Shown piece after piece: positions 24,337-25,996 of a DNA stretch of 64,000 nt. The stretch is from NCBI GenBank assembly GCA_963760615.1, contig CAVXDX010000004.1, positions 78,223-142,222 on the forward strand. The letters are read 5' to 3'. Below the pieces are notes generated by a model that worked only from the letters and a program-made list of their open reading frames with translations, was not told the origin of the DNA and did no database searches. The position numbers were made by a program, and so were the translations under genes. This DNA comes from an uncultured Candidatus Micrarchaeota archaeon (lineage in GTDB: Archaea; Micrarchaeota; Micrarchaeia; Burarchaeales; Fermentimicrarchaeaceae). Numbering within the stretch: position 1 is the stretch's first letter; each line of letters opens with the position of its first letter.

Positions 24337-24639
24337 TTACTTCTTCACTGGGAGCGGCTTTGCATGCGACGCCAGCAGCTTTATTGCCTGCTCTATGGCA
24401 TTCCTCACTTCCCTCTCGCTCTTTGAGCCGGTGCATATTATCTTGCCGTTCTTGAAGAGCAGCAACGAGGCTCTGGGTTCTTTGAGCTTCAGGATGGCTC
24501 CTGGGAACTGCTCTGGCTCATACTCCACATTTCGGACTTTCTGCGCAATTGTGTAAAGGTCAAGCTCCACTCCCAGATTTGCAGATGCAACGATGTTCTC
24601 TATCTTGAACTTTGGCTCAATTTTGAGTTTTTTAGCCAC
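24337..24639 (-). CDS. Single-repeat (monopartite) TATA-binding-protein-like protein
   Basis: KIENIVASA, EYEPEQFPG, LLLFKNGKIICTGSKS form exactly one TBP repeat in 100 aa; GTG start with a GGTGGT RBS. Confidence 0.9.
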   Translation of the reverse strand: MAKKLKIEPKFKIENIVASANLGVELDLYTIAQKVRNVEYEPEQFPGAILKLKEPRASLLLFKNGKIICTGSKSEREVRNAIEQAIKLLASHAKPLPVKK

Positions 24640-24796
24640 GGATGACCACCACTTTATTTATAAACGTAGGTATTTAAAAACCGAACGACGAGCCAGCACT
24701 CTGCGGAATATGTTTGGTGAAAGCCAACAGCATTTATATATCTATTTGGGTATATACTACTACTCTACAGTCGTTAAGTTGGCTCGGAGGGAGCCC

Positions 24797-25075
24797 ATGA
24801 GAAGGTCGTTGGGAAAGTTCTCAAAGAGGACTAGGTGCCTTAGGAAAAGGGCGGGGCAGAAAAGCGTCCCCATGAGGAGGCTTTTGGGCAGCTTCAGCAT
24901 TGGAGACAAGGTTTGCATAAACCTGGCTCCTTCCCAGCAGGGTTTGCCTCACCCGCGCTACAGGGGAAGGCACGGAGTAATTGTTGCGATGAGAGGCAAG
25001 TCATATGTTGTCGATGTCAAGAGTGGCAACTCGTACAAGAGGATAATACTGCCGGGGATGCATCTGAAGAAGTGA
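24797..25075 (+). CDS. rpl21e: 50S ribosomal protein L21e
   Basis: FSIGDKVCI, PHPRYRGRHGVI, HLKK; start ATG 24797 after GGAGG. Confidence 0.93.
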   Translation: MRRSLGKFSKRTRCLRKRAGQKSVPMRRLLGSFSIGDKVCINLAPSQQGLPHPRYRGRHGVIVAMRGKSYVVDVKSGNSYKRIILPGMHLKK

Positions 25076-25079
25076 TGTT

Positions 25080-25418
25080 ATGATTGAGAAGGACGTTGTA
25101 TCGAACAGGCCTGCAACGCTTGCCGAGGTAAAGGAAGTGCTTGAGGAGAGGAAGAAAGAAGGTGAATTGGGCTTCGAGCAGCAGACAACACTTGCCTATG
25201 CAACTAAATATGCGAAGCTGAGCAAGAAGAAAGCAGCCGAGCTGATTGAGGAGCTCCAGAAAATCAACAAGGTGAAGCCCACAGTTGCTGCCAAGATAGC
25301 AGACATACTCCCGAAGAACTCGGACCAGATTAGGCTGATATTCGCAAACGAGAGGTATTCGCTGAGTGCGGAAGAGATTAAGGAAGTGCTTAAAATTGTC
25401 GAGAAATACTCCAAATAG
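25080..25418 (+). CDS. rpo4: RNA polymerase subunit Rpo4 (RpoF)
   Basis: LGFEQQTTLAYA, KIADILPK, IRLIFANE; conserved position after rpl21e. Confidence 0.92.
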   Translation: MIEKDVVSNRPATLAEVKEVLEERKKEGELGFEQQTTLAYATKYAKLSKKKAAELIEELQKINKVKPTVAAKIADILPKNSDQIRLIFANERYSLSAEEIKEVLKIVEKYSK

Positions 25419-25429
25419 AGGTCAGGAAG

Positions 25430-25996
25430 ATGAGGATAGGAATGGAGGAATATGCAGTAGTATTAGATTCGCTCCCTTACGGGAAATCGACAGATGTGAG
25501 AAGGGAGCCGATAGCCCAAGTGGTAGGGGAAGATTACTTCACGCTATTGGAAATCACTCCGAAGTCGAGTGTGACTGTTTCTGTTGGTGAGAGGATATAC
25601 ATAGGAAAGGGGCCGCGGGATAAGGTGGACCACATAAAGAGCAGGATAAACTACCTAGATTTGACCTTTTCAGCAAGGGCAGAGCTTGAGAGGGCTTTGA
25701 GGAGGATAATACAGGAGAAGGAGCAATACTTTGTCGGCTTCTTCAACAAATGCGGCCCGATAAACATACGCCTGCACCAGCTGGAGCTACTGCCAGGTGT
25801 TGGAAAGAAGCACATGAGAGACATACTGGATGAGAGGGAGAGGAAGCCTTTCGAGAGCCTGGAGGACATAAACAAGCGGGTGGCTTTGCTTCCGGATGCC
25901 TCAAAGATAATAGTAGATAGGATACTAGAGGAGCTGCTAGGCAAGTCCAAGTACTACATACTCACAAGGCCGCCTTTCCAGAAAGAAGAGGTCTAG
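25430..25996 (+). CDS. DUF655 helix-hairpin-helix nucleic-acid-binding protein
   Basis: AQVVGEDYFTLLE, FFNKCGPINIRLHQLELLPGVGKK; conserved archaeal operon position. Confidence 0.92.
   Translation: MRIGMEEYAVVLDSLPYGKSTDVRREPIAQVVGEDYFTLLEITPKSSVTVSVGERIYIGKGPRDKVDHIKSRINYLDLTFSARAELERALRRIIQEKEQYFVGFFNKCGPINIRLHQLELLPGVGKKHMRDILDERERKPFESLEDINKRVALLPDASKIIVDRILEELLGKSKYYILTRPPFQKEEV

Follow-up and report, generated by a model that had tools for sequence, protein, structure and literature searches.

TBP, the TATA-binding protein, is a textbook pseudo-symmetric protein which is thought to descend from a homodimer. Canonical archaeal TBPs, e.g. those of S. acidocaldarius (structure 1MP9), M. 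jannaschii (2Z8U) and P. woesei (1AIS and 1PCZ), consist of two fused lobes in one chain of about 180-200 amino acids (aa). Monopartite forms have been described as companions of such full-length proteins. The halobacterial monopartite TBPs, including TbpA of Halobacterium, are close to TBP; TbpA is reported to be non-essential and is encoded beside several full TBPs (Brindefalk et al. 2013, PMC3597702). The Thermococcales possess highly diverged monopartite TBP-domain proteins of about 95 aa and unknown function beside a normal TBP (P. furiosus NP_578195; PMC3597702, Table 3). "Single lobe versions" of TBP are mentioned in passing elsewhere (PMC7221094). Comparative papers on DPANN archaea score TBP only as present (PMC8407392). 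A full-text search with limited coverage of subscription journals yielded no report of a lineage having a one-lobe TBP as its sole TBP. Here we describe such a gene in a stretch of 64,000 nucleotides (the window) of an uncultured Candidatus Micrarchaeota archaeon (assembly GCA_963760615.1, contig CAVXDX010000004.1). This one-lobe TBP is a real, functional gene and its type is the sole TBP across most of the class, where the protein was either reduced to one lobe or kept at one.

The product of the gene, P0001, gave one match to the Pfam TBP profile PF00352, which aligned its residues 10-91 to positions 1-84 of the 85 in the profile (E-value 5.8e-31; 106.6 bits at a cut-off of 22.9). The two tandem lobes that define a canonical TBP were not found, as P0001 contains one repeat and no second repeat lies nearby. 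The stop-to-stop frame of the gene comprises 106 aa, which leaves no room for a fusion upstream or downstream. Aligned to the two lobes of known TBPs, P0001 fitted both equally well, scoring 77 and 71 bits for M. jannaschii and 74 and 71 bits for Sulfolobus, with 42-45% identity per canonical lobe. The AlphaFold2 model, which was built with an alignment of 133 lobes, reached a predicted local distance difference test value (pLDDT) of 94.7 and shows the topology S1-H1-S2-S3-S4-S5-H2 of one lobe; the run with the single sequence gave a pLDDT of only 43.8. Foldseek retrieved 44 TBP chains with this model at E <= 1e-3, the best being Sulfolobus TBP 1mp9 with template modelling (TM) scores of 0.87 (query-normalised) and 0.47 (target-normalised). 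These two values indicate that the model spans half of a TBP. For the canonical structures the query-normalised TM scores were 0.82-0.87. The profile match, the model and the structural search agree in assigning the TBP lobe fold to P0001. The names of its homologues assign the organism to Micrarchaeota, and among the closest named ones are proteins of Ca. Burarchaeum and Ca. Gugararchaeum.

P0001 keeps the two phenylalanines with which a TBP lobe intercalates (F45 in EQFPG and F62 in LLLFKNGK). Together with N15, V17 and G65 they occupy invariant or nearly invariant columns of the 133-lobe alignment and align to their counterparts in 2z8u and 1mp9, and T70 is present in the sequence outside the listed conserved columns. 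We take the phenylalanine pair, N15, V17 and T70 to be DNA contacts, as assigned from yeast and archaeal TBP structures. The acidic stirrup EYEPEQFPG is identical in both lobes of M. jannaschii TBP and, judged from its sequence, P0001 appears to have a stirrup suited to the binding of transcription factor B (TFB)/TFIIB. The ratio of non-synonymous to synonymous substitution rates (dN/dS) was 0.02-0.05 in comparison to orthologs of the genus and family and 0.14 in comparison to a paralog described below. Purifying selection acting on the gene is strong. A first-pass annotation of this DNA, which had been made from the sequence and its open reading frames (ORFs), had described a protein of 100 aa covering exactly one TBP repeat with both Phe positions (EQFPG, LLFKNG), a clean stop and its own ribosome-binding site. 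The first three statements agree with the single Pfam match and the modelled fold, with F45 and F62, and with the stop codon closing the ORF; as to the fourth, a Shine-Dalgarno-like candidate precedes the start codon (Table 1).

No two-lobe TBP was detected in the host assembly (G000, Micrarchaeota; 1.14 Mb, 16 contigs, 91% complete) by a six-frame hmmsearch --max with three lobe profiles and 13,324 frames. This search recovered the gene of the window and one paralog, the next best match having an E-value of 0.4, and the Pfam TBP profile matches the same two places only. The first-pass annotation had seen no second repeat in the other frames downstream, which the search of the whole genome extends, and had advised looking for a full-length tbp in the genome; none was found. 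The second one-lobe gene, on contig C8, had escaped its notice. This paralog encodes a single lobe of 104 aa with 80% identity to P0001 (L002:1459-1770, minus strand) and sits away from the conserved tbp locus. The paralog has a 4-bp overlap with the start of a gene for a CxxCxxCC-domain protein (PF03692; 143 aa, L002:1028-1459, minus strand) and is preceded by an ORF of 316 aa without Pfam match. There is one TFB in the genome, an ordinary one with two cyclin repeats in a frame of 306 aa.

The tbp gene of the window is located beside rpl21e, rpo4 and a DUF655 gene (Table 1). Pfam matches of these neighbours confirm that it is divergent from rpl21e-rpo4, as stated in the first-pass annotation. 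In at least 11 families a one-lobe tbp is transcribed divergently to rpl21e-rpo4-DUF655, and about 70 two-lobe tbp genes of Micrarchaeota occupy the identical position. This common locus makes one-lobe and two-lobe tbp positional orthologs, so that the number of lobes has changed in place. Of the two host genes, that in the window keeps the synteny; the C8 paralog is additional.

Table 1. Features of the tbp locus, with positions counted from the first letter of the window
Feature	Position	Strand	Description
Single-lobe TBP gene (P0001)	24337..24639	-	100 codons, GTG start, TAA stop; from ORF and translation
Putative Shine-Dalgarno-like motif GGTGG	24646..24650	-	6 nt ahead of GTG; read from the sequence
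Candidate promoter	24669..24682	-	near-palindrome GGTTTTTAAATACC, contains TTTAAATA
rpl21e	24797..25075	+	opens the divergent rpl21e-rpo4-DUF655 block, a class-wide mark of the tbp locus; PF01157, E 4e-16
rpo4	25080..25418	+	RpoF/Rpb4-like RNA polymerase subunit, conserved beside tbp; PF03874, E 4e-12
DUF655 protein gene	25430..25996	+	also a species marker; PF04919, E 9e-66

The distribution of lobe numbers was followed in a class sample of 311 species genomes, each at least 85% complete, with the lobe states verified on sampled members of each family (the tallies include the unpublished genomes G171 and G279, which carry no individual claim). TBP is present in 305 of the 311 genomes. About 190 of these genomes belong to families sampled as one-lobe, i.e. 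about 60% of the sampled species. One-lobe genes with frames of 95-145 aa, usually one per genome, characterize the nine families of the host's own order (f1-f9) as well as f10, f12, f14, f15, f17, f18 and f27-f33 (about 120 genomes), family f13 (71 genomes) has two unlinked one-lobe genes with 43-51% identity to each other, and a classic two-lobe gene is found in f11, f16 and f19-f26 (about 114 genomes). The single-contig genomes G157 and G177 contain exactly one one-lobe tbp each. An assembly artefact was rejected as an explanation, since hundreds of assemblies obtained independently, single-contig genomes among them, contain the one-lobe gene as well.

Copy numbers in the host's own genus range from one to three. 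In one genome of this genus a single contig has two one-lobe genes in tandem, with equal orientation and separated by about 1 kb (G005:C62:704-943 and 1973-2215), an arrangement of the kind from which a fusion could start. Two TBP matches were obtained for all 71 sampled genomes of f13. In five genomes of this family which were checked in detail, four or all five of them counted as single-contig (G032, G217, G237, G258 and G268; L024-L033), the pair consists of unlinked one-lobe genes that fall into two separate clades; only one of the two paralogs keeps the rpl21e-rpo4-DUF655 synteny. The f13 pair could be a heterodimeric "split" TBP. Three proteins among the best-scoring library matches, P0241 (376 aa), P0246 (702 aa) and P0242 (272 aa), contain three or four TBP-lobe matches per chain.

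The first-pass annotation had alternatively considered the one-lobe protein as a competitor of canonical TBP. This would mean a regulator comparable to TbpA of Halobacterium, with the canonical TBP missing from the incomplete assembly. About 9% of the genome may indeed be unassembled, and the monopartite TBP-domain proteins known so far coexist with full TBPs (PMC3597702). Such a coexistence was found neither in the host genome nor in the sampled genomes of one-lobe families: canonical TBP is absent from the 25 sampled genomes of the own order and from most of the class, and it is the one-lobe gene that occupies the orthologous tbp locus. The canonical-type two-lobe genes seen in genomes of one-lobe families are confined to extra copies on two short contigs, L037 (G266:C43, 8.4 kb) and L043 (G164:C77, 3.7 kb), and look foreign. 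Their lobes are assigned to the canonical N and C types and group with non-micrarchaeal TBPs. These genes probably stem from host or bin contamination, or from a transfer. With a two-lobe TBP found neither in the host genome nor, as sampled, in the families of its approximately 190 relatives, the one-lobe protein has nothing to compete with, and we regard this explanation as extremely unlikely. While the one-lobe protein shares with TbpA a single lobe close to bona fide TBP, it is the sole TBP and class-wide. From the Thermococcales proteins, which also have a single TBP-like domain, it differs by its score of 106 bits on the TBP profile itself.

The one-lobe protein is thus probably the general TBP of the organism, acting as a dimer. 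A role as general initiation factor together with TFB and RNA polymerase is suggested because this is the sole TBP type in a genome with one TFB, and because of the conserved locus and the low dN/dS. In this role P0001 would dimerise, bind DNA, recruit TFB and be essential. The first-pass annotation had proposed a homodimer forming a perfectly symmetric saddle. This is the reading which is supported best, by the sole TBP type, the tbp locus and purifying selection, and a homodimer mechanism is very likely; the dimerisation itself is deduced from these observations. Two one-lobe chains would pair via their S1 strands and H2 helices to form a saddle of ten strands. Each chain would provide the F45/F62 pair, the minor-groove contacts N15, V17 and T70 and one acidic stirrup EYEPEQFPG, so that the assembled saddle would possess four phenylalanines and two stirrups in exact twofold symmetry. 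Compared to the canonical TBP, whose presumed role with TFB it would share, the one-lobe saddle would need two chains and be exactly symmetric.

A saddle of twofold symmetry would itself be unable to read the polarity of a promoter. Polarity would come from the single ordinary TFB, binding to the TFB-recognition element (BRE) that flanks the TATA box on one side. In archaea it is the contact between TFB and the BRE that determines the polarity of the pre-initiation complex (PMC7289017, which cites Bell et al. 1999). Furthermore, canonical archaeal TBPs already bear the same stirrup motif on both lobes. Directional initiation need not suffer from a symmetric saddle. The partner chain may be a second copy of P0001 or the 80% identical C8 paralog, which would result in up to three dimer species.

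Alternatively it might be that the window gene and the C8 paralog form an obligate heterodimer, a TBP divided in two with either protein adapted to its own side of the saddle. Two one-lobe genes do exist in the host genome, and the constant presence of two unlinked genes in the sister family f13 makes heterodimeric use plausible somewhere in the class. The host paralogs, however, both score +4.0 on a discriminator of N and C lobes (see below), and genomes of the same genus and family vary between one and three copies (one in G001 and G006-G009). Considering also the similarity of the paralogs and the position of the C8 gene outside of the conserved locus, the duplication looks recent and dispensable. 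We therefore judge an obligate heterodimer in this organism to be unlikely.

The word TTTAAATA, located at 24671-24678 on the minus strand and beginning 39 nt ahead of the tbp start codon, is the most enriched upstream 8-mer of the host genome. It was detected in 49 upstream regions compared to 5 expected, with a median position of -31. Its reverse complement TATTTAAA occurs in 42 and the palindrome ATTTAAAT in 33 upstream regions, and these three top words are enriched 7- to 10-fold. The words come from k-mer enrichment upstream of genes called by ORF length, and the numbers are small. In front of co-directional genes the counts of TTTAAATA are nearly equal for the two orientations, with 12 sense and 11 antisense occurrences. 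The first-pass annotation had proposed that a symmetric saddle is possibly orientation-blind at divergent promoters; on this point the analysis gave the nearly equal frequency of the commonest word and its reverse complement. The profile around TTTAAA reads approximately A-T-A-TTTAAA-T-A, with additional A upstream. The word upstream of tbp is consistent with a symmetric TATA core flanked by a putative asymmetric BRE. A comparison of promoter-word orientation between single-lobe and two-lobe species was dropped, since the two-lobe loci all represent the orthologous tbp-rpl21e region and the counts are not independent.

These promoter words also bear on the possibility that a monomer, or one lobe with a non-TBP partner, occupies a half-site while TFB or another factor completes the recognition. 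Archaeal TBP-DNA complexes often depend on TFB for their stability (PMC7289017), which would be an indirect point in favour of such a mode of binding. Against it, the parts that make up the inter-lobe interface in TBP, S1 edge strand and H2 helix, are conserved, the top words give a palindromic core (TA)TTTAAA(TA) with enough length for two lobes, and no partner family is evident. Binding by a single lobe seems very unlikely to us. Several points have to be set against the dimeric general TBP which we prefer. Dimerisation is deduced and the structure was modelled as a single chain; with two paralogs in the host genome, active forms other than the homodimer are possible; the promoter data are crude, being based on ORF-length gene calls; and at 91% completeness a gene missing from the assembly is formally possible, though the relatives argue otherwise.

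The origin of the single lobe was addressed with profiles of the N and C lobes built from 118 two-lobe TBPs of the canonical type, which classified 93-97% of lobes correctly in cross-validation. Canonical N lobes scored +10.2 ± 7.6 and C lobes -11.9 ± 8.4 on the resulting discriminator. Micrarchaeal lobes are near zero, with +4.1 ± 1.4 for single lobes, +0.3 for the N lobes and -0.4 for the C lobes of two-lobe proteins. They bear neither the N-lobe nor the C-lobe signature, and P0001, having one lobe per chain, differs in this respect from canonical TBP (+4 compared to +10 for N and -12 for C lobes). The C lobes of Nanoarchaeota, Woesearchaeota and Parvarchaeota are clearly of the canonical type (-11 to -12.5), and one Iainarchaeum gave an intermediate N/C score. 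This Iainarchaeum (L122) is the sole true one used, as proteins labelled "Candidatus ainarchaeum" (P0220) turned out to belong with Micrarchaeota.

A phylogeny against N- and C-terminal repeats had been suggested in the first-pass annotation. It places the micrarchaeal lobes together with both Iainarchaeum lobes in one clade (support 96/80), outside of the canonical C lobes, which form another (93/83). An affinity to the N lobes was not established: shifting the micrarchaeal clade off the N lobes is not rejected by the approximately unbiased test (p = 0.154). An N-lobe origin of the single lobe, at which the tree placement and the score of +4 hint, is for this reason not claimed. A species tree of three markers (372 columns), which gives no resolution of the backbone and of the position of Iainarchaeum, joins all two-lobe families in one clade (96/87). 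The one-lobe family f12 lies inside this clade with weak support, and four other lineages are all one-lobe.

The two-lobe TBPs of Micrarchaeota, found in a clade that includes metagenome-assembled genomes labelled Bilamarchaeaceae and Anstonellales (f11, f16, f19-f26), are 64-75% identical to P0001 in either lobe. They share with it the rpl21e-rpo4-DUF655 locus, and their lobes belong to the common clade. They differ in being fused, with repeats 53-76% identical to each other, and in having N/C signatures of their own which are absent from the one-lobe proteins. Profiles made from these micrarchaeal N and C lobes (+26/-21 in cross-validation) score every single lobe as intermediate (-11 to +2.6). 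At the nucleotide level the two repeats share identical runs with a median longest run of 47 nt and a maximum of 95 nt (genes L034 and L054-L121). Runs of at least 30 nt occur in 51 of 72 two-lobe genes. Third-position identity between the repeats is 0.54, and no residue specific to the N or the C lobe falls within alignment columns 35-63. The identical tracts indicate ongoing intragenic gene conversion, which alone could erase the N/C signatures and make the lobes cluster by lineage. By unequal recombination these tracts can also offer a route to the precise loss or gain of a repeat. Our first reading, that the two-lobe micrarchaeal TBP is a recent re-duplication of the one-lobe form, was dropped because conversion can explain much of the similarity of its N and C lobes. 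A chimeric origin of the single lobe by unequal crossover, with an N-type front and a C-type back, does not fit the lobes of the own order and fits f12 only loosely.

Two histories come into question. Either an early loss of one lobe was followed by re-duplication in a single clade, or the ancestor had two homogenised lobes, one of which was lost several times. A secondary origin of the one-lobe TBP is at least as likely as ancestral descent, because of the canonical C lobes in other DPANN archaea, the missing signatures in micrarchaeal lobes and gene conversion. The one-lobe TBP might also be a primary relic, if Micrarchaeota together with Iainarchaeota had split off before the duplication into N and C lobes from which the TBPs of all other archaea and of eukaryotes derive, and the two-lobe forms were later, independent re-duplications. 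The position of micrarchaeal and Iainarchaeum lobes outside of the canonical C-lobe clade would agree with this, the placement relative to the N lobes being non-significant. Given the canonical C lobes of other DPANN archaea, a relic would require the archaeal root to lie beside the micrarchaeal/Iainarchaeota group, and we consider it quite improbable. The first-pass annotation had called the protein a stand-in for ancestral TBP. As a description of how the protein may function this is fair; an actual descent from ancestral TBP is hypothetical.

Many one-lobe tbp genes are called "hypothetical" or "partial" by annotation pipelines, and surveys that score presence only overlook the number of lobes. 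For biochemistry and structural work P0001 offers a minimal TBP of 100 aa. As a natural test case, the Micrarchaeota could also show whether initiation from a perfectly symmetric saddle can be directional when polarity has no source other than TFB-BRE contacts. With fusion, fission, two-gene duplication and gene conversion occurring among close relatives, they supply living intermediates for the path from a homodimer to the pseudo-dimer.
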